DNA of 64,000 nucleotides from Squalus acanthias (taxonomy: Eukaryota): positions 67,146,001-67,210,000 of the forward strand of contig CM059440.1 of assembly GCA_030390025.1 (NCBI GenBank), given 5' to 3'. The notes below the pieces were generated by a model, which saw only the letters and a list, made by a program, of their open reading frames with translations, did not search any database and had not been told where the DNA came from. The position numbers were made by a program, and so were the translations under genes. Below, one piece after another: positions 44,336 to 63,377 of the stretch. How positions within the stretch are numbered: the first letter of the stretch is position 1; each line of letters begins with the position of its first letter.

Positions 44336-46576
44336 GGGAACGGTAGCATAGTGATAATGTTACTGGGCTAGTAATCCAGAGGCCTGGACTAATGATCCAC
44401 GGCAGCTGGGGAATTTAAATTAAGTTAATTAAATAAATCTGGAATAAAAAGCTAACGTAAAACGTTATCGTAAAAACCCATCTGGTTCACTAATGTCCTT
44501 TTGGGAAGGAAATCTTCCGTCCTTACCTGGTCTGGCCTATATGTGACTCCAGACCCACAGCAATGTGGTTGACTCTTAACTGCCCTCTGAAATGGCCTAG
44601 CAAGACACTCAGTTGTAACAAACCGCTACGAAACACAATAATAAGAATAAAATCACACAGACCACCCGGCATCGAACTTGGCACCGGCTACGGACACGGC
44701 AACAGCACACCCAGCCCAGTCGACCCTGCAAAGTCCTCCTCACCAACATCTGGGAATTTGTGCCAAAATTGGGAGAGCTGTCCGACAGACTAGTCAAGCA
44801 ACAGCCTGACATAGTCATATGTCATAGTTCAACTCCTCCATCACCATCCCTGGGTATGTCCTGTCCCACCGGCGGCACAGTGGTATACAGTCGGGAAGGA
44901 GTGGCCCTGGGAGTCCTCAACATTGACTCTGGACCCCATGAAGTCTCATGGCTTCAGGTCAAGCATGGGCAAGGAAACCTCCTGCTGATTACCACCTACC
45001 GCCCTCCCTCAGCTGATGAATCAGTACTCCTCCATGTAGAACACCACTTGGAAGAAGCACTGGGGGACTTCAATGTCCATCACCAAGAGTGACTCGGTAG
45101 CACCACTACTGACCGAGCTAACCGGCCTGCGACAGGTGGTGAGAGAACCAACATGTCCGCACCAATTTACCTGTCGCAGATGCATCTGTCCATGATAGTA
45201 TTGGTAGCAGTTAGCACCGCACAGTCATTGTAGAGACGAAGTCCCGCCTTCACACTGAGGACACCCTCCATCGTGTTGTGTGGCACTACCACCGTGCTAA
45301 ATGGGATAGATTCAGAACAGATCTAGCAGCTCAAATCTGGGCATCCATGAGGCACTGTGGGCTGTCAGCAGCAGCAGAATTATATTCCACCACAATCTGT
45401 AACCTCATGGCCCGGCATATCCCTCACTCTACCATTACCAGCAAGTCAGGGACCAACCCTGGTTCAATAAGGAGTGTAGAAGAGCATGCTAGGAGCAGCA
45501 CCAAGCGTACCTAAAAATGAGGTGCCAACCTGGGGAAGCTGCAACACAGGCATGCTAAAAAGCAGAAGCAGCATGCTATAGACAGCGCTAAGCGATCCCA
45601 CAATCAACAGATCAGTTCAAAGCTCTGCCATCCTGCCACATCCAGTCGTGAATGGTGGTGGACCATTAAACAACTAACGGGAGGAGGAGGCTCCATGAAC
45701 ATCCCCATCCTCAATGATGGTGGAGCCCAGCACGTGAGTGCAAAAGACAAGGCTGAAGCATTTGCAACCATCTTCAGCCAGAAGTGCCGAGTGGATGATC
45801 ATATCAGCCTCCTCCTGAGGTCCCCACCATCACAGAAGCCAGTCTTCAGCCAATTCAATTCACTCCACGTGATATCAAGAAACGGCTGAGCGCACTGGAT
45901 ACAGCAAAAGCTATGGGCCCTGACAACATCCCGTCTGTCGTGCTGAAGACTTTTGCTCCAGAACTAGCCGCGCCTCTAGCCAAGCTGTTCCAGTACAGCT
46001 ACAACACTGGCATCTATGCGACAATTTGGAAAACTGCCCAGGTAATGTCCTGCCCACAAAAAGCAGGACAAATCAATCGGGCCAATTACCGCCCCATCAG
46101 TCTACTCTCAATCATCAGCAAAGTGATGGAAGGTGTCATCAACAGTGCTATCAAGCAGCACTTACTCACCAATAACCTGCTCGCTGATGCCCAGTTTGGG
46201 TTCCGCCATGACCACTCGGCTCCCGACCTCATTACAGCCTTGGTCCAAACATGGACAAACGAGCTGAATTCCAGAGGTGAGGTGAGAGTGACTGCCCTTG
46301 ACATCAAGGCAGCATTTAACCGAGTGCAGCATCAAGGAGCCCTAGTCAAACTGATGTCAATGGGAATTGGGGGGAAAACTCTCCATTGGCTGGAGTCATA
46401 CCTAGCACAAAGGAAGATGGTTATGGTGGTTGGAAGTCAATCATCACAGCCCCAGGACATCGCTGCAGGAGTTCCTCAGGGCAGTGTCCTTGGCCCAACC
46501 ATCTTCAGCTGCTTCATCAATGACCTTCCCTCCAACATTAGGTCAGAAATTGGGATGTTCGCTGATGACTGCACAG
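44336..46576 (+). mobile_element. CR1/L2-group LINE, 5' part (SINE-like head, APE, RT up to MFADDCT), frameshifted
   Basis: APE motifs (QQPDIV, TTYRPPS, LGDFNVHH); RT (MGPDNIP, NYRPISLLS, QFGFR, LDIKAAF, GVPQGSVLGP, FADD); ends abruptly at the duplication boundary. Confidence 0.88.
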
Positions 46577-49500
46577 GTTACAGCACTTCAAGTGCATATC
46601 CAAGTACTTTTTAAATGAGATGATGGTCTCTGCCTCTACCACCCTTTCAGGCAGTGAGTTCCAGACCCCCACCACCCTCTGGGTGAAAAAATTTCTCCTC
46701 AAATCCCCTCTAAACCTCTGACCAATTACTTTAAATCTATGCCCCTGGTTATCGACCCCTCTGCTAAGGGAAATAGGTCCTTCCTATCCACTCTATCTAG
46801 GCCCCTCATAATTTTATACACCTCAATTAGGTCTCACCTCAGCCTCCTCTGTTCCAAAGAAAACAACCCCAGCCTATCCAATCTTTCCTCATAGCTAAAA
46901 TTCCCCAGCCCAGGCAACATCCTCATAAATCTCCTTTGCACCCTCTCTAGTGCAATCACATCCTTCCTGTAATGTGGTGACCAGAACTGCATGTAGTATT
47001 CTAGCTGTAGCCTAACTAGTGTTTTATACAGTTCAAGCATAACCTCCCTGCTCTTATATTCTACGCCTCGGCTAATAAAGGCAAGTTTTCCGTATGCCTT
47101 CTTAACTACCTTATCAACCTGTCCTGCTACCTTCAGGGATCTGTTGACATGCACTCCAAGGTCCCTCTGATCCTCTGCACTTCTCAGTGTCCAACCACTT
47201 ATAGTGTATTCCCTTGCCTTGTTAGCCCTCACCAAATGCATTACCTCACACTTCTCCAGATTGAATTCCATTTGCCACTGTTCTGCCCACCTGACCAGTC
47301 CATTGATATCTTCCTGCAATCTACAGCTTTCTTCTTCATTATCAACCACATGGCCAATTTTTGTATCATCTGCAAATTTCTTAATCATACTTCCTACATT
47401 CAAGTCCAAATCATTGATATATACCACAAAAAGCAAAGGACCCAGTACTGAGCCCTGTCTTCCAGCCACAAAAACACCCTTCGACCATTACCCTTTGTTT
47501 CCTGCCTCTGAGCCAATTTCGGATCCAATTTGCCACTTTGCCTTGGATCCCATGGGCTTTTACTTTCGTGACCAGTCTGCCATGCGGGACGTTATCAAAA
47601 GCCTTGCTAAAATCCATATAGACTACATTAAACGCACTACCCTCATCGACCATCCTCGTTACCTCCTCGTTACCTCCTCAAAAAATTCAATCAAGTTAGT
47701 CAGACACGACCTTCCCTTAACAAATCCATGCTGACTGTCCCTGATTAATCCGTGTCTTTCTAAATGAAGATTTATCCTGTCCCTCAGAATTTTTTCCAAC
47801 AATTTTCCCACCACCGAGGTTAGGCTGACTGGCCTGTAATTACTCGGTCTATCCCTTTCTCCCTTTTTAAACAACGGTACCACATCAGCAGTACTCAAGT
47901 CCTCCGGCACCATACCTGTAGCCAGAAAGGATTGGAAAATGATGGACAGAGCTTCTGTTATTTCCTCTCTTACTTCTCTTAATAGTCTGGGATACATTTC
48001 ATCCGGGCCTGGGGATTTATCCACTTTCAAAGTTGCTAAACCCCTTAATACTTCCTCTTTCACTATGCTTATTTCATCTAATATTTCACACTCCTCCTCT
48101 CTGATTGCAATTTCTGCATCGTCCCTCTCTTTTGTGAAGACAGACGCAAAATTTGCATTAAGAACCATACCCATGTCTTCCGCCTCCACACACAGATTAC
48201 CTTTATGGTCCCTAATAGGCCCTACTCTTACTTTAGTTATCCTCTTGCTCTTAATGTATTTATGAAACATCTTTGGGTTTTCCTTGATTTTACTTGCCAA
48301 TATCTTTCATGCCCTCTCTTTGCTTTCCTAATTTCCTTTTTAATTTCACCCCTGCACTTTCTATACTCCTCTAGGGTTTCTGCAGTATTGAGCCCTCAGT
48401 ATCTGTCATAAGCTTCCCTTTTTTTCTTTATCCCTCCCTGTATGCCCCTTGACATCCAGGGAGTTCTAGATTTGTTAGTCCCACCCTTTTTCTTTAAGGG
48501 AACAAACTTGCTCTGAACCCCCACTATCTCCTCCTTGAATGCCTCCCACTGCTCTGACACTGATTTACCTTCAAGTTTCTGTCTCCAGTCCACTTTGGCT
48601 AAATCACATCTCAGCTTAGTAAAATTAGCTTTTCCCCAATTGAGAACTTTTATTCCTGGACTATCCTTGTCCTTTTCCATAACTACGCTAAATCTAACTG
48701 AATTATGATCACTACCACCAATATGCTCTCCCACTGATACCCTTTCCACCTGCCCAGCTTCATTCCCTAAAACTAGGTCCAGAACCGTCCCCTCTCTTGT
48801 TGGGCTTGCTACGTAGTGGCTCGAAAAAGTTCTCCTGAATGCATTTTAAGAATTCTGCTCCCTCTATACCTTTTCACACTAATTTTATCCCAGTTAATAT
48901 TAGGGAAGTTGAAATCCCCACTATTACTGCCCTATTTTTGCACGTCTCAGAAATTTGCCTACATATTTACTCTTCTATCCCCCTCTGACTGTTTGGGGGT
49001 CTATAGTACACTAGCAGTGTGATTGCCCCTTTTTTGCTTTTCAGTTCAACCCATATGGGCTCGTTGGATGATCCTTCTATGATGTCATCCCTCCTCACAG
49101 CTGTAATTGATTCTTTAATCAATATTGCGACCCTCCCTCCTTTTTAATCCCCCTCTCTATCTTGTCTGAAAACCCTGTTACCAGGAATGTTGAGCTGCCA
49201 TTCCTGCCCTTCTTTCAGCCATATCTCAGTAATAGTTATGTTGGCCCAAAAATTCGGCCGTTCTCGGGTGAGTACGGACTGTGTACTCACCCGTATTCAT
49301 TCCCGAAGTGCCGGTTTCCTGCATGCACTGTGCATGCGCGGGAAACCGGCACTTCCGGTATGGCGAAGGGGGCGGTTCCTAGGTGAACCACGTGCGCACT
49401 AGAGGCTGTGCGCACGCAGCACACTTAGGTTTTTTTTCAGGTTTCAACGCGAGGGTAAGTATTGAAGATTCTACGCTAGTAAAAAGGAGGCGTAAGACCC

Positions 49501-50060
49501 CTTTTGACCAAGGTAAGTAGTTAATTAAGTATAATTTAAAAAAAATTTCAACAGGTTTATCTTTTTTAGAGACTTTAAAGAAAGGTAAGTTTATTTTTAT
49601 AACTTTTAAAAAGTATTTTAATTTTTTCAAAAATTTAAATTTTTGTTTAAAGTGGTTAATTTATTTAACTATAGTTATTTTATTAATGTGATGGTTTTAA
49701 AAAAATTTATTTGAGGTTTAGCTGTTCTTTTGGGGCCGATTTCAATTCGCAGATTTGACAGGTCTATGAATGAAAGATGGTCTGCTGCCATTGGCTCTCC
49801 ATGGCCCACGTGATCCCAGGGGTCGCATCGCACTAACTGCGCCCCTGAAACACGCAAGCACTGCGCGCCGGCTCTTGGGAGAGGCCCAGGACCCGAAGTT
49901 CCTGTGGGCCCAAAACACAACGGCAGGCGCGGTGGGTAAGAGCGCGCGCGATCCTTACCCCCGCGGCAAGCCAGCCACCCGAATTTCTAGGCCAACATCA
50001 TACTCCCAGGTGTCTATCTGCGCCCTCAGCTCATCTGCTTTATTCCTTACACTCCTTGCT
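46577..50060 (-). mobile_element. CR1 ORF2 remnant (duplicated copy 1; lacks the 3' tail)
   Basis: SDHN, KSPGPDEMYPR, MDFSKAFDNVPH, KFADD motifs across several frames. Confidence 0.93.
49243..49993. mobile_element. Hairpin-rich MITE inserted in CR1 (second copy at 60104-60854)
   Basis: Imperfect TIR ggcccaaaaattcgg / ccgaatttctaggcc; GC-rich arms around an AT-rich core; CR1 resumes on both sides. Confidence 0.8.
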
Positions 50061-50559
50061 GGTCTTGCCATGAACGAATAAAAAAATATATAGTGCCTTT
50101 CAGACCCTCAGGACATCTCAAAGAGCTTCACAATTAAATACTTTTGAAGTGTAGTCACTGTTATAATGGAGGCAATTTCAGCAGTCAGTCTGCATGAAAC
50201 AAAGTCTCACAAACAGCAGTGGGAAAAATGACCAAATCATTTTTTTCTTGTGGTGTTAGTTGTGAGAGAAATATTGGCCAGGAAACCAGGAGAACTCCCC
50301 TGCTCCTTTTTGAAATGCGTGAAATCGGAAACAAAAGCACACAATTTTAGAAACTCTCATTAGATCAGTCAGAATCCGTGGGAAGAACAGATACTTGGTC
50401 AGAGGTAATGTTCTTTGTTTTGATTTCATTCCTTTATGTCTTCCAAACTTTTTGTTCGCTGTAAATTCGACGACATTGCTTTTGCTTTACGAGTTAACTT
50501 TGCTGTGGTTTCCGTTGTCAGGAAAGAACACAGCCAGCCTACTGTCAACAGTGCCTGCG

Positions 50560-50930
50560 TCAGAGACAAGACATAAATACAAGCGGAATCCAGATTCCAG
50601 CGGCTCACTCGGCTTTGGCGTTTCACGCAGGGAGGTGCTGCGGTTCCGAGGCCGGCGAGAGTGAAGGTGAGCAGATACCCCATTCTCCGGCCTTGTTGTG
50701 TCCCCCTGTCTCACGTTGCCTTCACGGGAAAGAATTGAGACGTGGCAGACTGGGAGCGGCCGCTTGTTGTGAGTATCCCGCTGCCCCGGAGGCGGCCACA
50801 GAAGTTTGGAAAGTTGCAGCGACATCCCGGGGCTCTGCGAGCGCCGTCAGCGATCTCTCCAGTCCCCAGTGGGCAGGGGCTGAATGGGCAATTGCCGCTG
50901 AGTGAAGCCGCCTCTTTCCCCACCGTCACA
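50560..50930 (+). promoter_or_regulatory. CpG-rich promoter / non-coding first exon of B7-like copy 1 (candidate donor AAG|gtgagc after 50666)
   Basis: Local GC/CpG enrichment not matching the window's repeats, upstream of the signal exon; that exon has an acceptor and needs an upstream exon. Confidence 0.5.
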
Positions 50931-51334
50931 TTTACTTTCTGCCATCAGGTAGAAGCGACTGGGATGGGAGTTATTTTGATAACGTAAATAAACTGGTATT
51001 TTCGTTATTGAAATTGCTCGATTAACAAATCAAACATCTGCAAGTGTGATCATCTGTTGCTGTACTGTAAATGTAAAACAACTCTGTATTAAAGGAGCCA
51101 GCCTGCCCTGATCCCTCCACAATAACCTGTTGGAAGTTTGCGTTCTGGGCATCAAGTGAGGACAGTCTCAGACTAGGCTGTGGAGCCTCCCATCGTCGAA
51201 TAGTCTGCCAACATTCACTCTCTGGGCTCACACATGTAGAATGACCACTTGAGCAAATTCCTGCTTATTAATGTATATTAATCCATTTAATAATGACCAT
51301 GTTTATTCACATATCTTGTATTTCTTTCTTTAAG

Positions 51335-51418
51335 GAATTTACCAGCTAAGAGAAACAGCAATGAGATTGAATTCTCCGTTCCAAATTCTTGTTCTGTGGG
51401 GACAATTCGTAGTTGGTC
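51335..51418 (+). CDS. B7-like copy 1, signal-peptide exon (ATG at 51361)
   Basis: Acceptor tttctttctttaag|, ATG at 51361, 19 codons + 1 nt, perfect donor C|gtaagt; phase matches the IgV exon. Not in the ORF track. Confidence 0.8.
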
Positions 51419-54400
51419 GTAAGTCATAACTAACTTAATAATTTCAAGGAATTTGATGTGATGTTCTGCATTTGCTTTTTTGTTACTGCTCAATATTTGT
51501 TACACAATTACACTTAATTATCTTTATAACTGGCAGCTTTAAAATCAGTTTCTTTCATTTACAACCAAACAATCCAGGAAGTGGACGGTCCACTGATGTG
51601 AATTATGGCCCATTGAGCCTTATCCAGCTCGTAACCATTCACAATGCAGTCCACTGAGCCTATATAACTTCGTTCTATTGCTATTTACATTTCTTACTTG
51701 CTGGTTTGCCATGTTTGCATTTTCTGAGCCTGGATGTTTGGAAAGAGTTTTTTTTAATTCATTCATGGGATGTGGGCGTCGCTGGCAAGGCCAGCATTTA
51801 TTGCCCAGTTAGGATTAGTAGTTTTGCATCATTGGTGGATAAATCCTGAATCAGAACATCAGTAGTATCTGCAGCTAGACTTCTGCAAATTAATGGGAAC
51901 TGGTACATAGATCATTAAAATATGAACAGGTACAGAAAATAATCAAAAGGTTAATAGAACGCTGGCCTTTATATCTAGAGGACTAGGATACAAGGGGGTA
52001 GAAGTTATGCTGCAGCGATACACCAGGAGTACTGTGAGCAGTTGTGGGCACCGCACCTTAGGAAGGTCTTTCCGCAGATATTGACTGACCTGCTGAGTAT
52101 TCTTTTACTATTTTCTGCTTTTGTTTCAGATTTCTAACATTTTATCCTTCCTCTTTAACTTACAGCTGGATTTGAAGTCCGAATGGTTACTGGACCAGTG
52201 GCAGCTATCAGTGACCAAATTGTTGTGCTAGGATGCAGTTTCACTGTGACTGGAGAGCCACCTGAGAAGAATATCGTTGTCACCTGGCAGCTCGTCGACA
52301 CTGAAGAGGTTGTCCACAGTTATTATTATGGCGAAGACCAGCTCAGCAAGCAGAATCCTCAATATTCAGGCAGAACAAGTCTATTCCCAGAGGAGTTTAA
52401 AAATGGAAATGCTTCACTGAAATTAAAAGGAGTAAGACCAAACGACGCTGGACTATACCAGTGTTATGTCAGTAATACAGTTGGAAATGATAAAGGAACA
52501 GTTTCTGTCAGAATTGCAGGTAAATATACTGAACGTATTTCTCTTTTCTTAGTTGCCCATCTTACCTGACTCACGCTACAGTATTGTTGCCTCGAATACA
52601 TCCTCTCTCTTTATTCATAGTGAATGGGTAACAGGTCATGTACTGTAAACTTCTTCCCATTAAGTGTTAATAAGCACAGTGCAGAACAGAGCTAATATAG
52701 CCCATTATGTAATCGAGAGGAAATGGAACATTTCTCAAATTGCCTGGGATAAAAGTTGGAGTCCCAGAGGAAAGAAAATGTTGAGAACTGCATTTTTAAC
52801 ACATTTACACTTTTCGTTAGGTTACAAGTTTTTCAATCCATGTCCAGTGCCACCTCACTGGGAGAACCTCTCTCACCAGTGACAGATTGCTTCTGCCACC
52901 TCACCTGCAGCTGCCATCTATTCCAGCCTATGGAGGGAGTCATTGGAGAGCCTGGGTGCAAGAGGTCACCTTTGTGCAGTGATTGTCAGTGTTTTCAGCC
53001 CCTCAATGCTGTCAAACACTGAGAAATCAACTGTCAAAATAAAATAGTGCATGGTCCCTTTAAGGAAACCGACAGATGACGCATCATTAAATGATGTCAG
53101 CAGACCCGCTTCCTATTAATTGGCTGGCAAGCCCGCAGGGCGGGCTTAACAAGGTCAATCAAGGCAAAATCACGTCCATGGCCCAGATGCAGCTGGGGGC
53201 GGGACTGGAAGCCGGAAACCACCTGACCCGCAGCCAACCCGCCTCCATTGATAAAATCGCGGCCTTAGTTTTATGATGCCTCAAAATAGCACTGGAGGAT
53301 GATTTACCTGGACCCCCTCTCTCAGGTTCGAGCTCCGTTTGAATATGGTCCGGTCACAGCCCTAGTACTCCTTGCAGGGCCCTAATGTCAGGAAATGTCA
53401 GTTGGAGTACAGCAGCCAGAATGGTAGAAGAGCTGGGGGGGCTCATGGTTTAAAAAAAAACTTTCAGCTACCTTTCAGTTTCTCTTTGCTTTGCTGCCCG
53501 GTCCCGTCAGACCCACCGACCCGAGTGGGTGCCTAACACAAGGCCCACCATCAGCTTCTTGGGGTACCTCTACATCTGGGCACCCCTGGGCTGCAGAGGA
53601 AAATCTATCAGGCAGGAGGCCGGGAATGCCCCTCCCACCTCATTTAAGTGAGCACATTGTGCAGGTCCTACTCCACCCCTTGGAGCAAGCACTGGCAATC
53701 CCAGGACAGTTTAAAGGAGGTGGGTGCCTGGCATAACTGGTTTTTGCCCCTGTTATGACATTTGTGCCCAGAGAATAGGCGTTCCCTGGGGTAAAGGCCA
53801 AGATAATCTGCCTATGATGTAATGAGATTGCGATCAAATCATTTTTTCATCTTCTGAGGATGCTCAACCTGTGCAGAACTCGAACGTCAAGTACGCACTT
53901 GACCTCTAACTCTTCTGTGCTGCACTCCTTGTACTCAAAACAAATAAGTGACTGGTAACCAAGAACTTTATAATCATTATATTAGGCCGTGCATTGTTCT
54001 GCAATATAGCTCAAGCATATACCAAAGGTATATGGCACTGTATCATTTATTACTGAAGAGGCAAGACTGAAAGATTGTTTTAATTTCACAGCATACTACA
54101 ATGAGCCAGTGCTGTTGATCAAACAGAAACTGTCCAGCACCATTTTAACATTTGAGTCCCGAGGCTTTCCTAAGGCTGATGTTTCTTGGTACAACGGAGA
54201 CAATCTACATGATTCCCTTTTGTCCAAATGTTTATACCAGCAAACTGCTGATGGTCTGTACATAGTCGAAAGCACTATGGAAATCATTGTCACAGAAAGA
54301 AGTTCAAACTATACATTCGTGTTAAGAAATGCTGCTGTCAATCAAACTATCTCGAGGACACTTAGTTTTCTTATTCCAGGTAAGATTTTGCTTGTTCTTC

Positions 54401-55191
54401 TCACCAATTTTCTTCCTCTCCTTCTCGCTTGAAGGTACCAGGCCACTCTCACACTCAGGTGGGTTATTATTTATGTGGGAACATTAATAGTGGGTTTTAC
54501 CAGGCGGATCATCAATGGTGCATCAGAGCTGCACCTGATCCTATCCTCACCTTCTGTCCACAAAGGTGCAGTTTCAGAATGGGTCACTGATAACCCTAGG
54601 GCATTAAGACCAATTGTCACATCCATACTGCTGTCCCAGCTGTTATCAGCTAACTCAGCATATATTGAAGGTGGGACTGCATGACTCAGCTACTCACTGG
54701 AGAGACTCACTGAGCCACTGGAGGAGCTAGACTTTTCATTTTAATAATAATAACTGAGTCATCTATTTATTATTTTAGAAAATGAATCTTTACAAAACAA
54801 ATTCAATTCACACAATTTTCATCGCTAGTACATTTAAGTTGAGTATTCAGTAATTTGCTCATCACTTTAGTCGCTTCTACCCACCAGGAAGCCGCAGTAG
54901 CATCTGAATAGAACCTCCTTGTGATTTTTTTGAGCTGCTTCTATTTTTATGATTCTTTTTATTCAAGGAATAAAAGGTTTTTTTCCTCTTTTTTTTCTAC
55001 TTCCAGAGAATTCAATCGGGAAGAAAGACCGTTCCTGCAATTATTATGCAGCCCTCATCAGTTGCATTCTGGGGACTATATTCATAATAATAATAATAAT
55101 AATAATAATAATAGCACTAACTGTGATGTTACATAAACACAGGTATATTAAACCAAAGAAAATGGAATACAATAATCCAGGTCTACCATGA
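51361..55191 (+). CDS. B7-family Ig-superfamily membrane protein (CD276/HHLA2/VTCN1-like), copy 1; join(51361..51418,52166..52519,54092..54379,55007..55191), 294 aa
   Basis: Four exons with GT-AG, all phase-1 junctions, give an 885-nt open frame. Signal peptide MRLNSPFQILVLWGQFVVG; IgV (LGCSF..VTWQ..VVHSYYYGEDQL..YSGRTSLFPEEFKNGNASLKL..DAGLYQCYV); IgC-like (AYYNEP..RGFPKADVSW..QQTADGLYIVES..NYTF); hydrophobic TM and short basic tail. Orthologue cannot be assigned by eye. Confidence 0.88.
52166..52519 (+). CDS. B7-like copy 1, IgV exon
   Basis: ttacag|CT GGA TTT GAA GTC...ATT GCA G|gtaaat; canonical B-strand Cys, C-strand Trp and D-x-G-x-Y-x-C motif. Confidence 0.93.
54092..54379 (+). CDS. 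B7-like copy 1, IgC-like exon lacking the canonical Cys pair
   Basis: ttcacag|CA TAC TAC AAT GAG CCA...ATT CCA G|gtaaga; B7-type C-domain motifs GFP-x-A-x-V-x-W and DGLY-x-V-x-S. Confidence 0.88.
55007..55191 (+). CDS. B7-like copy 1, stalk/TM/cytoplasmic exon
   Basis: Long polypyrimidine tract + ttccag|; in phase it reads ENSIGKKDRSCNYYAALISCILGTIF(I)10ALTVMLHKHRYIKPKKMEYNNPGLP*. Confidence 0.8.
55084..55113 (+). repeat. (ATA)10 microsatellite, in-frame poly-Ile
   Basis: Ten perfect ATA codons. Confidence 0.97.
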
Positions 55192-55739
55192 GATCACTCT
55201 GGATTCCAAAATATCCTGATGGTTGTAACCAATTCTCTGCTGGACCTGTATGGTGTTTGGAGTTACAAATGGATATGTTATGAATGCTGTTTGTTCCAAA
55301 TAATGAGCCTGAATGGTCGGAATATCGATGAGTGATCCGCATGTAATAGCAACAAGGAATCCATGGGTATTCGTACTGAGTGATCCACATGTAATGGCTA
55401 TGAAGGATCCTGTATTCAGTCTGAGTGATCCACAAGAACTTGAACTGATAAGGAGGTGTTTGTAATAATCAGTGAGAGAGATTATCTAACTGGTCACTCG
55501 ACAGAGCTATCTGTAACTCTGTGAGAATAAGAGGAAGAGGAGTGTTAGATGACTGGTTGTGTTCTAAACCTACTAAAAACTGTTCAACTGAAAAAAATGC
55601 TGTAATAGCAGATCGATGATTTCTAGATGCTGACTGTGTTGTATGTTCGCGAATGTTTCCTTGCACCCTGAGTGTTAGTCTAATCTGTTTTCTATAGTCA
55701 TCCCTACTCCGTATGTTTCACTGCTATGTTTAATTCAGA

Positions 55740-55745
55740 AATAAA
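55740..55745 (+). terminator. Probable polyadenylation signal of B7-like copy 1
   Basis: AATAAA about 550 nt after the stop, followed by TGTA/GT-rich sequence. Confidence 0.45.
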
Positions 55746-56447
55746 TATATGTCAATCAATGTATGTATGACTCTGGTTTGGCATTTAATGTTCCACCATT
55801 CTAGAGTGAATTGAGGCTGTAGAATATCACTGGGCTCAACAATGCTGGCCCACTACTGCATTGTTGGAAGCACTACCCTCAGGCACCACGTGTACCTGTC
55901 CACACTCAGCTGCTCTCATTCAATAATGCTCATTGAATATATTTTCTGGCACTCCCAGTACATCAATCATGATGCTCAAGGACTGCCAAGAAAATGGGTC
56001 TGGCGTATTGTGGGGAAGGTGTGAGGGGGGGAGTGGTGGTGGTGGAAGGAACAATCAGGGACATTTTTTATTTTTTGATGGGACCTCCTCTTCAGTGCCT
56101 GTATCAGCATGCACCGATGCTCCCATCACAGCTCTCCCAATCTCAGGCCATGGCTTAACATCACATTCCTTGCCAGCTGCAAGCTCTTCCCCTCCCATCG
56201 CAGATGAGGTCATTTCTGTGGCTATATGGAGATTTGGAGCCCCAGGTCAGACTCTAGGACACTATGGGAGGTGAAGGAAAGAGGAGAAAGTGATAGACAT
56301 GAAGATAGAGAGAGAGTGCGAGACATAAGAACAGAAATAAAATGTACACAGAGTGAGGGACATAGAGGAAAAATAGGATACTGAGGGGAGGAGACACAGA
56401 GGAGAAGGAAAGGGTGAAGAAAAACAGATACAAAGACAAGGACTGAA

Positions 56448-57279
56448 AGTTCATTCGCAGCTCCTTAGATAATGAAGCAGTCCATGCCCACATGCAGCAA
56501 GACCTGGATGACATTCAGGCTTGGGCTGATAAGTGGTAGGTAACATTCACGCCTCACAAGTGCCAGGCAATGACTATTTCCGATAAGCGAGCGTCTAACC
56601 ACCGCCCTTGACATTCAACGGCATTACCATCGCCGAATACCCCACCATCAATATCCTGGGGGTTACCATTTACCAGAAACTTAACTGGACCAGCCACATT
56701 AATACTGTGGCAACAAGAGCAGGTCAGAGGCTGGGTATTCTGCAGCGAGTGTCTCACCTCGTGACTCCCCAAAGCCTTTCCACCATCTACAAGGCACAAG
56801 TAAGGAGTGTGATGGAATACTCTCCACTTGCCTGGATGAGTGCAGCTCCAACAACACTCAAGAAGCTCAACACCATCCAAAACAAAGCAGCCCACTTGAT
56901 TGGCACCCCATCCAACACCTCAGACATTCACTCCCTCCACCACCGGCGTACCATGGCTGCAGTGTGTACCATCTACAAGATGCACTGCAGCAACTCACCA
57001 AGGCTTCTTCAGCAGCACTTCCAAACCCGTGACCTCTACCACCTAGAAGGACAAGGGCAGCAGGCGCATGGGAACACCACCACCTCCAAGTTCCCCTCCA
57101 AGTCACACACCATCCTGACTTGGAAATATATCGGCGTTCCTTCATCATCGCTGGGTCAAAATCCTGAAAGTCCCTACCTAACAGCACTGTGGGAGTACCT
57201 TCACCACACGGACTGCAGCGGTTCAAGAAGGTGGCTCACCACCACCTTCTCAAGGGCAATTAGGGATGGGCAATAAATG
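56448..57279 (+). mobile_element. Same LINE family, 3' part (RT just after FADD through the 3' tail)
   Basis: IRSSLDNEAVHAHMQQDLDDIQAWADKW*VTF, ILGVT, YKAQVRSVMEYSPLAW; tail caagggcaattagggatgggcaataaatg, also seen at 1-78, 720-1112 (-), ~30760-31010 and ~51760 (-). Confidence 0.88.
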
Positions 57280-57280
57280 A

Positions 57281-60200
57281 ATCATAGAATCATAGAATCA
57301 CAGAAATTTACAGCACAGAAGGAGGCCATTTGACCCATCTTGTCTGTGCCGGCCGACAAAGAGCTATCTAGCCTAAACCCACTTTCCAGCTCTTGGTCCG
57401 TATCCTTGTAGATTACGGCACTTCAAGTGCACATCCAAGTACTTTTTAAATGTGATGATGGTTTCTGCCTCTACCACCCTTTCAGGCAGTGAGTTCCAGG
57501 CCCCCACCACCCTCTACATAGAAACATAGACATTTCTCCTCAAATCCCCTCTAAACCTCTTACCAATTACTTTAAATCTATGCCCCCTGGTTATCGACCC
57601 CTCTGCTAAGGGAAATAGGTCCTTCCTATCCACTCTATCTAGGCCCCTCATAATTTTATACACCTCTATTAGGTCTCCCCTCAGCCTACTCTGTTCCAAA
57701 GAAAACAACCCCAGCCTATCCAATCTTTCCTCATAGCTAAAATTCCCCAGCCCAGGCAACATCCTCATAAATCTCCTCTGCACCCTCTCTAGTGCAATCA
57801 CATCCTTCCTGTAATGTGGTGACCAGAACTGCACACACTATTCTAGCTGCGGCCTAACTAGTGTTTTATACAGTTCAGGCATTACCTCCCTGCTCTTATA
57901 TTCTATGCCTCGGCTAATAAAGGCAAGTTTTCCGTATGCCTTCTTAACTACCTTATCAACCTGTCCTGCTACCTTCAGGGATCTGTTGACATGCACTCCA
58001 AGATCCCTCTGATCCTCTGCACTTCTCAGTGTCCAACCACTTATTGTGTATTCCCTTGCCTTGTTAGCCCTCACCAAATGCATTACCTCACACTTCTCCA
58101 GATTGAATTCCATTTGCCACTGTTCTGCCCACTTGACCAGTCCATTGATATCTTCCTGCAATCTGCAGCTTTCTTCTTCATTATCAACCACGTGGCCAAT
58201 TTTTGTATCATCTGCAAATTTCTTAATCATACTTCCTACATTCAAGTCAAATCATTGATATATACCACAAAAAGCAAAGGACCCAGTACTGAGCCCTGCG
58301 GAACCCCACTGGAAACAGCCTTCCAGCCACAAAAACACCCTTCGACCATTACCCTTTGTTTCCTGCCTCTGAGCCAATTTCGGATCCAATTTGCCACTTT
58401 GCCTTGGATCCCCATGGGCTTTTACTTTCGTGACCAGTCTGCCATGCGGGACGTTATCAAAAGCCTTGCTAAAATCCATATAGACTACATTAAATGCACT
58501 ACCTCATCGACCATCCTCGTTACTTCCTCGTTACCTCCTCAAAAAATTCAATCAAGTTAGTCAGACATGACCTTCCCGTAACAAATCCATGCTGACTGTC
58601 CTTGATTAATCCGTGTCTTTCTAAATGAAGATTTATCCTGTCCCTCAGAATTTTTTACAACAATTTTCCCACCACCGAGGTTAGGCTGACTGGCCTGTAA
58701 TTACTCGGTCTATCCCTTTCTCCCTTTTTAAACAACGGTACCACATCAGCAGTACTCAAGTCCTCCGGCACCATACCTGTAGCCAGAAAGGATTGGAAAA
58801 TGATGGACAGAGCTTCTGTTATTTCCTCTCTTACATCTCTTAATAGTCTGGGATACATTTCATCCGGGCCTGGGGATTTATCCACTATCAAAGTTGCTAA
58901 ACCCCTTAATACTTCTTCTTTCACTATGCCTATTTCATCTAATATTTCACACTCCTCCTCTCTGATTGCAATTTCTGCATCGACCCTCTCTTTTGTGTAG
59001 ACAGACGCAAAATTTGCATTAAGAACCATACCCATGTCTTCCGCCTCCACACACAGATTACCTTTATGGTCCCTAATAGGCCCTACTCTTACTTTAGTTA
59101 TCCTCTTGCTCTTAATGTATTTATGAAACATCTTTGGGTTTTCCTTGATTTTACTTGCCAATATTTTTCATGCCCTCCCTTTGCTTTCCTAATTTCCTTT
59201 TTGATTTCACCCCTGCACTTTCTATACTCCTCTAGGGTTTCTGCAGTATTGAGCCCTCGGTATCTGTCATAAGCTTCCCTTTTTTTCTTTATCCCTCCCT
59301 GTATGCCCCTTGACATCCAGGGAGTTCTAGATTTGTTAGTCCCACCCTTTTTCTTTAAGGGAACAAACTTGCTCTGAACCCCCACTATCTCCTCCTTGAA
59401 TGCCTCCCACTGCTCTGACACTGATTTACCTTCAAGTTTCTGTCTCCAGTCCACTTTGGCTAAATCACATCTCAGCTTAGTAAAATTAGCTTTTCCCCAA
59501 TTGAGAACTTTTATTCTTGGACTATCCTTGTCCTTTTCCAGAACTACGCTAAATCTAACTGAATTATGATCACTACCACCAATATGCTCTCCCACGGATA
59601 CCCTTTCCACCTGCCCAGCTTCATTCCCTAAAACTAGGTCCAGAACCGTCCCCTCTCTTGTTGGGCTTGCTACGTACTGGCTCGAAAAAGTTCTCCTGAA
59701 TGCATTTTAAGAATTCTGCTCCCTCTATACCTTTTCACACTAATTTTATCCCAGTTAATATTAGGGAAGTTGAAATCCCCACTATTACTGCCCTATTTTT
59801 GCACGTCTCAGAAATTTGCCTACATATTTACTCTTCTATCCCCCTCTGACTGTTTGGGGGTCTATAGTACACGAGCAGTGTGATTGCCCCTTTTTTGCTT
59901 TTCAGTTCAACCCATATGGGCTCGTTGGATGATCCTTCTAAGATGTCATCCCTCCTCACAGCTGTAATTGATTCTTTAATCAATATTGCGACCCTCCCTC
60001 CTTTTTAATCCCCCTCTCTATCTTGTCTGAAAACCCTGTTACCAGGAATGTTGAGCTGCCATTCCTGCCCTTCTTTCAGCCATATCTCAGTAATAGTTAT
60101 GTTGGCCCAAAAATTCGGCCGTTCTCGGGTGAGTACGGACTGTGTACTCACCCGTATTCATTCCCGAAGTGCCGGTTTCCTGCATGCACTGTGCATGCGC

Positions 60201-62219: not shown

Positions 62220-63377
62220 ATGAGATTGAATTCTCCGTTCCAAATTCTTGTTCTGTGGGGACAATTCGTAGTTGGTCGTAAGTCATAACTAACTTAATAA
62301 TTTCAAGGAATTTGATGTGATGTTCTGCATTTGCTTTTTTGTTACTGCTCAATATTTGTTACACAATTACACTTAATTATCTTTATAACTGGCAGCTTTA
62401 AAATCAGTTTCTTTCATTTACAACCAAACAATCCAGGAAGTGGACGGTCCACTGATGTGAATTATGGCCCATTGAGCCTTATCCAGCTCGTAACCATTCA
62501 CAATGCAGTCCACTGAGCCTATATAACTTCGTTCTATTGCTATTTACATTTCTTACTTGCTGGTTTGCCATGTTTGCATTTTCTGAGCCTGGATGTTTGG
62601 AAAGAGTTTTTTTAATTCATTCATGGGATGTGGGCGTCGCTGGCAAGGCCAGCATTTATTGCCCAGTTAGGATTAGTAGTTTTGCATCATTGGTGGATAA
62701 ATCCTGAATCAGAACATCAGTAGTATCTGCAGCTAGACTTCTGCAAATTAATGGGAACTGGTACATAGATCATTAAAATATGAACAGGTACAGAAAATAA
62801 TCAAAAGGTTAATAGAACGCTGGCCTTTATATCTAGAGGACTAGGATACAAGGGGGTAGAAGTTATGCTGCAGCGATACACCAGGAGTACTGTGAGCAGT
62901 TGTGGGCACCGCACCTTAGGAAGGTCTTTCCGCAGATATTGACTGACCTGCTGAGTATTCTTTTACTATTTTCTGTTTTTGTTTCAGATTTCTAACATTT
63001 TATCCTTCCTCTTTAACTTACAGCTGGATTTGAAGTCCGAATGGTTACTGGACCAGTGGCAGCTATCAGTGACCAAATTGTTGTGCTAGGATGCAGTTTC
63101 ACTGTGACTGGAGAGCCACCTGAGAAGAATATCGTTGTCACCTGGCAGCTCGTCGACACTGAAGAGGTTGTCCACAGTTATTATTATGGCGAAGACCAGC
63201 TCAGCAAGCAGAATCCTCAATATTCAGGCAGAACAAGTCTATTCCCAGAGGAGTTTAAAAATGGAAATGCTTCACTGAAATTAAAAGGAGTAAGACCAAA
63301 CGACGCTGGACTATACCAGTGTTATGTCAGTAATACAGTTGGAAATGATAAAGGAACAGTTTCTGTCAGAATTGCAG
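62220..63377 (+). CDS. B7-like copy 2, partial: join(62220..62277,63024..63377); remaining exons lie beyond the window
   Basis: Signal and IgV exons with the same splice sites and identical translation to copy 1; offset 10858-10859 bp. Confidence 0.88.

Follow-up and report, generated by a model that had tools for sequence, protein, structure and literature searches.

Gene structure and copies at the locus

We analysed a stretch of 64,000 nucleotides of the Squalus acanthias genome (assembly GCA_030390025.1, contig CM059440.1, positions 67,146,001 to 67,210,000 of the forward strand), which we refer to as the window. It carries a B7-family gene and the signal-peptide and IgV parts of a second tandem copy. 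The features are as follows:

46575..57279 (+): unit 1 of the gene-bearing tandem duplication (~10.8 kb); 98.5% identical to the next unit
51335..51418 (+): 5' UTR and signal peptide exon, ATG at 51361; placed by tblastn with an orthologue, exon joints and splice sites
52166..52519 (+): IgV exon; Pfam V-set at E 5.9e-12, Cys43/Trp60/Cys119 and an HHLA2-like VHSYY..DQ patch
54092..54379 (+): IgC exon, B-F disulphide absent; Phe158, Trp170 and Phe213, unpaired Cys184, N-glycosylation sequons at 210 and 221
54151..54153 (+): Phe158 at the B-strand Cys position (TTT; from the alignment)
54187..54189 (+): Trp170, core Trp of strand C (TGG; 71 of 71 family rows)
54316..54318 (+): Phe213 at the F-strand Cys position (TTC; Phe in 57 of 71 rows)
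55007..55191 (+): stalk, transmembrane segment, short cytoplasmic tail and stop; joint 54379>55007
62220..62277 (+): tandem copy 2, signal-peptide coding sequence; identical
63024..63377 (+): tandem copy 2, IgV exon; identical, with its Phe/Phe IgC exon just past the window end

The layout is that of the B7 family, with signal peptide, IgV, IgC and the transmembrane segment plus short tail each on a separate phase-1 exon. The four joined coding exons give a product of 294 aa, the same length as stated in a preliminary description of this DNA. That description had also called the IgC exon otherwise intact, and we indeed found an open frame, the core Trp and AG/GT on the two flanks. Pfam gave weak matches to B7/BTN-type C domains for this exon (C2-set_2 at E 0.0018, below the cut-off). 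The cytoplasmic tail comprises 19 aa and has no B30.2 domain. The exon joints 51418>52166 and 52519>54092 were observed at GT..AG in contigs of all four sequencing runs (two studies), the joint 54379>55007 in contigs of three of the four runs and the upstream joint 50666>51335 in one run. None of the runs is recorded as RNA and their RNA nature is a guess of the tool; the evidence consists of the splice joints, not of depth. On these joints the IgC exon is spliced in.

The poly-Ile run of the transmembrane segment is an ATA microsatellite (window positions 55078-55107). It counts 10, 8, 11 and 10 codons across the tandem copies and thus the length of the transmembrane segment varies between them. 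Another characteristic is Cys184 (54230-54232) on strand D of the IgC domain, which is unpaired and also occurs in the Heptranchias, Scyliorhinus and Mustelus orthologues. This residue could form a disulphide-linked dimer.

Four near-identical gene copies lie within 70 kb and two of them contain a stop in the IgV exon. Searching the genome with the IgC exon, we obtained 54 matches from 67 candidates, 46 of which score as members of the Cys-less family described below. These are mostly copies of about 50% identity, clustered on C16, C4 and unplaced contigs, and some of the cluster copies may be haplotype duplicates. Of 36 exons inspected out of the 46, 34 showed Phe/Phe, one Leu/Val and one Val-or-Phe/Phe; Cys was observed in none of the 36. 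The Phe/Phe paralogue clusters (G000:C16:52.13-52.72 Mb, C4:43.37-43.94 Mb, C3806, C3598 and C794) comprise ~40 C-exon matches, several with stops, and their IgV varies on the receptor-binding face. For a cluster-type member the V>C splice was present in all four runs, which came from three studies.

For the flanks we scanned 140 ORFs, the longest of 1,356 non-repeat ORFs, and a few of them identify neighbours. Upstream we detected exons of an orexin receptor, a penta-EF-hand protein and a 14-3-3 protein, and downstream F-box and MFSD2A exons; ZMPSTE24 lies on the same contig as the gene and a search for the RPA_C family gave no match. We take this neighbourhood to correspond to human 1p34-35, where no B7 gene is known. 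A correspondence of the locus to the bowfin CD276-like gene near RUNX1/NITR was unsupported, as the Runt matches fell on C5, C9 and C2339 and not on C16. Within the window no other host gene was recognised. Judging from the ORF translations, positions 1-50000 and 56000-60000 consist mostly of LINE- and Penelope-type repeat fragments. Near the tandem array there are LTR-retroelement pol fragments and one env-like fragment (L031:8157-L032:2131, L033:3331-3732, L085:6392-9179 and L090:8571-9290).

The IgC domain and its missing cysteines

The preliminary description had placed Phe158 and Phe213 on the Cys positions of strands B and F, and the alignments to CD276 and PD-L1 bear this out. In the HMMER alignment to human CD276 both Phe fall on the Cys of TIT-C and YS-C, in the PD-L1 alignment the first Phe falls on LT-C, and the C exon of the genome's own CD276 gives the same alignment of Phe to Cys positions. 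Phe/Phe is no chance state, as it was present in all nine shark and ray matches with a whole IgC, the tenth match being an isoform without the B strand; the IgC identity to the orthologous Heptranchias and Pristiophorus proteins is 83%. Neither site is Cys in any of the 71 family rows, and the IgC disulphide of the canonical B7 members is absent.

Proteins of this family, named 'CD276 antigen-like', occur in sharks, rays, chimaera, lungfish, coelacanth, bichir, sturgeon, teleosts and turtles. A profile search gave 86 matches, of which the top 62 belong to the Cys-less family; the profile was built from family members and the ranking therefore favours the family. We scored 61 of the 62 and found a C domain in 60, with Cys at the B site in 0 of 60 and at the F site in 0 of the 58 that reach it. 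In limited homologue searches, amphibians, squamates, birds and mammals yielded no Cys-less member, and one of these searches missed even true CD276 orthologues.

For the 71-row alignment the rows were picked after homologue scoring, with one lizard PD-L control excluded. At the B site we counted 36 F, 16 L, 8 Y, 5 H, 2 Q, 2 T, 1 M and 1 W, and at the F site 57 F, 13 V and 1 A. The core Trp is invariant (71/71), and the IgV residues Cys43, Trp60 and Cys119 are kept in 70, 71 and 71 of the 71 rows, respectively. As far as these sequences tell, the trait that marks the family is a lost Cys pair together with a fixed Phe on strand F, and not strictly Phe/Phe. The earlier suggestion of Phe/Phe as a subfamily trait thus holds for the lost pair and the F-strand Phe and fails in its strict form, as the B position varies. 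Since the trait is common to cartilaginous and bony fish lineages, the distribution of the sequences dates the loss of the cysteines to before the split between them. It had further been pointed out that each Phe codon is one G>T change away from Cys. The arithmetic is correct; as an argument it is uninformative, because with a loss of this age it is silent on recent events.

In one Leu/Val subclade, consisting of L045 (G000:C2339, ~640 kb) and 13 database proteins, the core aromatics are gone and a conserved new C-F Cys pair is present. One of the new cysteines lies on strand C, two residues after the Trp, and the other immediately ahead of strand F; we found the pair in 13 of the 14 rows with Val or Ala at the F site. 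Going by these positions, the pair may be a replacement disulphide. As one subclade is Leu/Val, the aromatics are not required.

A single-sequence AlphaFold model of the Pristiophorus orthologue reached a pLDDT of only 44 and was discarded for a model based on a 72-row alignment. The latter, for a protein 83% identical, has a mean pLDDT of 89 and a complete beta-sandwich IgC, and Phe158, Trp170 and Phe213 all lie on strands. Its best structural match was B7-H3 (Z 20.7, rmsd 1.9 Å over 197 residues); PD-L1 and butyrophilins were the other top matches, where rows within 1 Z are tied. The Atlas model for the C domain of Heptranchias agrees, with a TM score of 0.83-0.88 to CD276-type clusters. Aromatic packing of Phe and Trp within the IgC domain is consistent with the orthologue model and likely from the alignment positions, and we consider a folded aromatic core highly probable.

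The IgC domain is under purifying selection. Between paralogue clades we computed a dN/dS of 0.19-0.46 for IgC in five of six pairs, with dS near saturation and the sixth pair undefined (saturated). These values of about 0.2-0.5 agree with the low dN/dS that the preliminary description had named as a check. Within the expanded cluster pN/pS was 0.27 for IgC (21 loci) and 0.60 for IgV (18 loci), where the pairs are not independent.

Disulphide-free Ig domains are known from other proteins, namely CD2 D1, CD58 D1, CD4 D3 and many titin I-set domains. They are a precedent for hydrophobic residues taking the place of the B-F cystine, but the domains are V- or I-set domains of other families. We know of no other B7-family IgC without the B-F disulphide.

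Relation to CD276, HHLA2 and other B7 genes

The tree was computed from 45 rows and 208 columns, with the two trait columns taken out. The window gene was placed in a 21-row Cys-less clade (support 98/99) of sharks, chimaera, lungfish, bichir, sturgeon and teleosts. A second Cys-less clade (94/93) contains shark, coelacanth and turtle genes, and two further Cys-less rows are loose. Monophyly of all 29 Cys-less rows was not rejected (p-AU 0.356), which is no proof of a clade. The deep forks between the two Cys-less clades and the two loose rows would also allow two or more independent losses. The BTN rows form their own clade (100/98). Quick trees with PD-L1 or HHLA2 inside the family in places were set aside (long-branch effects, HMM-guided alignment).

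All canonical B7 homologues that we inspected in the genome are Cys/Cys in their IgC. Cys/Cys genes like CD276, PD-L1, HHLA2, VTCN1, ICOSL and butyrophilins are located elsewhere in the same genome, where the CD276 label was derived from the PDB search and the other B7 labels, from the tree, are provisional. In the PDB search the match of the Cys/Cys CD276 (contig C19) to human CD276 has an E-value of 5e-71, compared to 1e-6 for the IgC exon of the window, and the C19 gene lies outside the 98/99 clade; the window gene is not a CD276 orthologue. Because the true Cys/Cys CD276 is on another chromosome, the label 'CD276-like' hides a separate paralogue family. CD276/B7-H3 is V-C-TM like the window gene and is the best PDB sequence match both for the IgC and for the family profile; the automatic name of the family also derives from it. 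However, the window gene lacks the IgC Cys pair and its A-B segment is 5 residues shorter. Compared to the CD276 of its own genome the identity is only 33% (V) and 23% (C), and 2 of the 11 contact-patch residues of CD276 match.

HHLA2/B7-H7 shows the top IgV identity among the canonical B7s of the genome (43%), and a VHS(Y/F)Y..DQL patch is common to both. It differs from the window gene in its V-C-V layout and its retained IgC cysteines; the C domains are 17-19% identical and the genes lie on different chromosomes. With V-C only, the window gene is not an HHLA2 orthologue, and a separate HHLA2-like gene is located on C5. We provisionally take the latter to be the shark HHLA2, based on its grouping in the tree with the named bird HHLA2. 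PD-L1/PD-L2, VTCN1, ICOSL and the butyrophilins have the B7 fold of the window gene, but all of their homologues inspected in this genome are Cys/Cys. The 19-aa tail and the position outside the BTN clade also set the gene apart from the butyrophilins. Dozens of butyrophilin-like V exons are clustered elsewhere (G000:C26:0.02-7.6 Mb, C2738 and C3359), and the C domains of the four inspected are Cys/Cys.

We conclude that the window gene belongs to a distinct, ancient B7 branch, and we have hardly any doubt that the disulphide-free subfamily is real. Splicing, conservation, selection and the tree all agree with the view of the preliminary description, which had proposed a distinct B7 subfamily with a disulphide-free IgC instead of a decaying gene.

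The family or its loss of cysteines might already be known by a different name from work on B7 genes of fish or amphibians, which would bear on novelty and not on mechanism. The proteins are present in RefSeq/UniRef as 'CD276 antigen-like' for many species, and Flajnik 2012, Hansen 2009 and Quiniou 2024 are candidate places, with their 'B7H3/B7H4-like' genes or B7 genes of amphibians. However, a 2024 paper from the same groups lists the fish B7 homologues as B7, B7H1/DC, B7H3, B7H4, B7H5 and B7H7 and no extra family. The literature searched, which did not extend to key B7-evolution papers, contained no Cys-less B7 IgC family, and none of five B7 terms occurred in the supplement of the elephant shark paper (PMC3964593). 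We regard an earlier description as doubtful.

Predicted receptor and meaning of the family

HHLA2 (B7-H7) is a ligand of CD28H/TMIGD2 and KIR3DL3. The IgV of the window gene is closest to the HHLA2-like V of the genome, with 43% identity compared to 33% for CD276, and the HHLA2-like patch of the IgV exon 52166..52519 is predicted to be the receptor-binding GFCC' face. The binding of HHLA2 to CD28H is stated in PMC9035628. A 2024 paper described four additional receptors of the CD28 family that human has lost, among them the CD28H paralogues CD28HL1-3 and the further paralogue CD28X, and in its accessible sections the paper leaves the ligand interactions of CD28HL1-3 and CD28X open (PMC11599192).

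A motif search gave three matches: an intact EIPPP V exon related to CTLA-4, one chance-like match and one match in a broken V exon. We located six CD28H-like V exons that carry the EIP motif (L102-L107), at G000:C2:194.40 and 194.44 Mb, C2:3.5 Mb, C5:145.19 and 145.38 Mb and C19:8.6 Mb; the one on C19 is frame-broken in this assembly. Two EIP-motif V exons lie less than 250 kb from the HHLA2-like gene on C5, which suggests a receptor-ligand linkage there.

Complexes were modelled without alignments. For the window IgV with an EIPPP-type CD28H-like V of the same genome we obtained a score of 0.83 (0.83-0.85 in three runs), compared to 0.00, 0.53 and 0.00 for the controls; the runs had at least 95% of the contacts in common and the pLDDT of the partner was at least 89. 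Among solved pairs, 51 of 78 microbial and 39 of 65 eukaryotic ones attained the score mark, compared to 2 of 108 mismatched microbial and 2 of 126 unrelated eukaryotic pairs. The score may reflect a likeness to solved structures of the CTLA-4/B7 or ICOS/ICOSL type, and the model cannot pick which member of the receptor family binds. In the model the GFCC' face is the docking site of the EIPPP loop. The contact residues Q41, V48, S51, Y53 and Q58 (exon numbering) are 93-100% conserved across 57 rows, and S-Y-Q is common to the window IgV and HHLA2 and not found in CD276, VTCN1, PD-L1 or BTN. Taken as a whole, the predicted interface showed no significant excess of conservation over the remaining IgV (p=0.77 for polar positions and p=0.09 for the 11 tightest contacts). 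In the paralogues of the expanded cluster the contact patch is changed and 4-5 of 11 residues match. PDB sequence searches returned no HHLA2 or TMIGD2 chain at the cut-offs used. We give about even chances to the window gene being the ligand of a CD28H-type receptor.

The explanation that we favour as a whole, with some confidence, is an ancient V-C-TM B7 paralogue with a disulphide-free IgC built around a Phe/Trp core, which would act as a CD28H-type ligand via its HHLA2-like IgV. The exon 54092..54379 would encode the membrane-proximal IgC of a spliced V-C-TM surface protein of the B7 family. The Cys pair would have been lost once and early, before the split of cartilaginous and bony fish, and a hydrophobic core, probably with Phe/Trp packing, would stand in place of the disulphide bridge, with the IgC domain presumably serving as a rigid spacer. 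The EIPPP loop in CDR3 of the receptor is predicted to contact the conserved Gln-Val-Ser-Tyr-Gln patch of the GFCC' sheet, in a docking mode like that of CTLA-4 on B7-1, and the HHLA2-like IgV face would thereby be a ligand for an EIP-motif CD28H-type receptor on lymphocytes.

The same disulphide-free family could instead bind another receptor, either an NK-type Ig receptor (NKp30/NITR/KIR-like) or a gamma-delta TCR, as is the case for B7-H6 and butyrophilins, and the shark expansion would then be an arms race. The roughly 40 further C-exon matches in clusters would fit such a history, as would the faster divergence of the cluster IgV compared to IgC (the pN/pS of 0.60 and 0.27 given above), the changes falling on strands C, C', F and G. 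Butyrophilins are also close structural matches, and a preprint reports a bowfin 'CD276-like' gene among NITR genes (10.1101/2021.06.11.448072), a candidate member of the family. However, in the clade of the window gene the S-Y-Q patch of HHLA2 type is retained and the complex test with a CD28H-like V was passed, and the tail is short (19 aa) and has no B30.2 domain; we consider a receptor of this other kind rather unlikely. A decaying or recently mutated CD276 duplicate, for which the IgV-exon stops in two of the four tandem copies and the stops in several cluster copies might speak, has practically no chance of being correct and is refuted by the conservation data: the orthologues are intact in all sharks and rays examined, selection is purifying, spliced contigs come from two organisms, the trait extends to teleosts and turtles and the true CD276 is separate.

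Ig domains that lack the disulphide are not new as such, so the finding is of interest more for the family that the two Phe codons mark, and for its predicted pairing with orphan CD28H-like receptors, than for the codons themselves. The most far-reaching version of our interpretation is tentative, and we would sooner bet against it than for it: an undescribed B7 branch of jawed-vertebrate age, lost in mammals, with a disulphide-free IgC and dozens of copies in this shark, would provide the ligands for the orphan CD28H-like receptors (CD28HL1/2), and one of its subclades would later have gained a C-F Cys pair. The list of fish B7 ligands has not grown, and the conserved 'CD276-like' branch is a concrete candidate ligand set. 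With the orthology corrected, fish studies citing 'CD276-like' genes may measure the Cys-less family instead. The family is also a natural experiment in which an IgC domain has been kept without its hallmark disulphide for more than 400 million years, while one subclade apparently swapped the aromatics for a new Cys pair.
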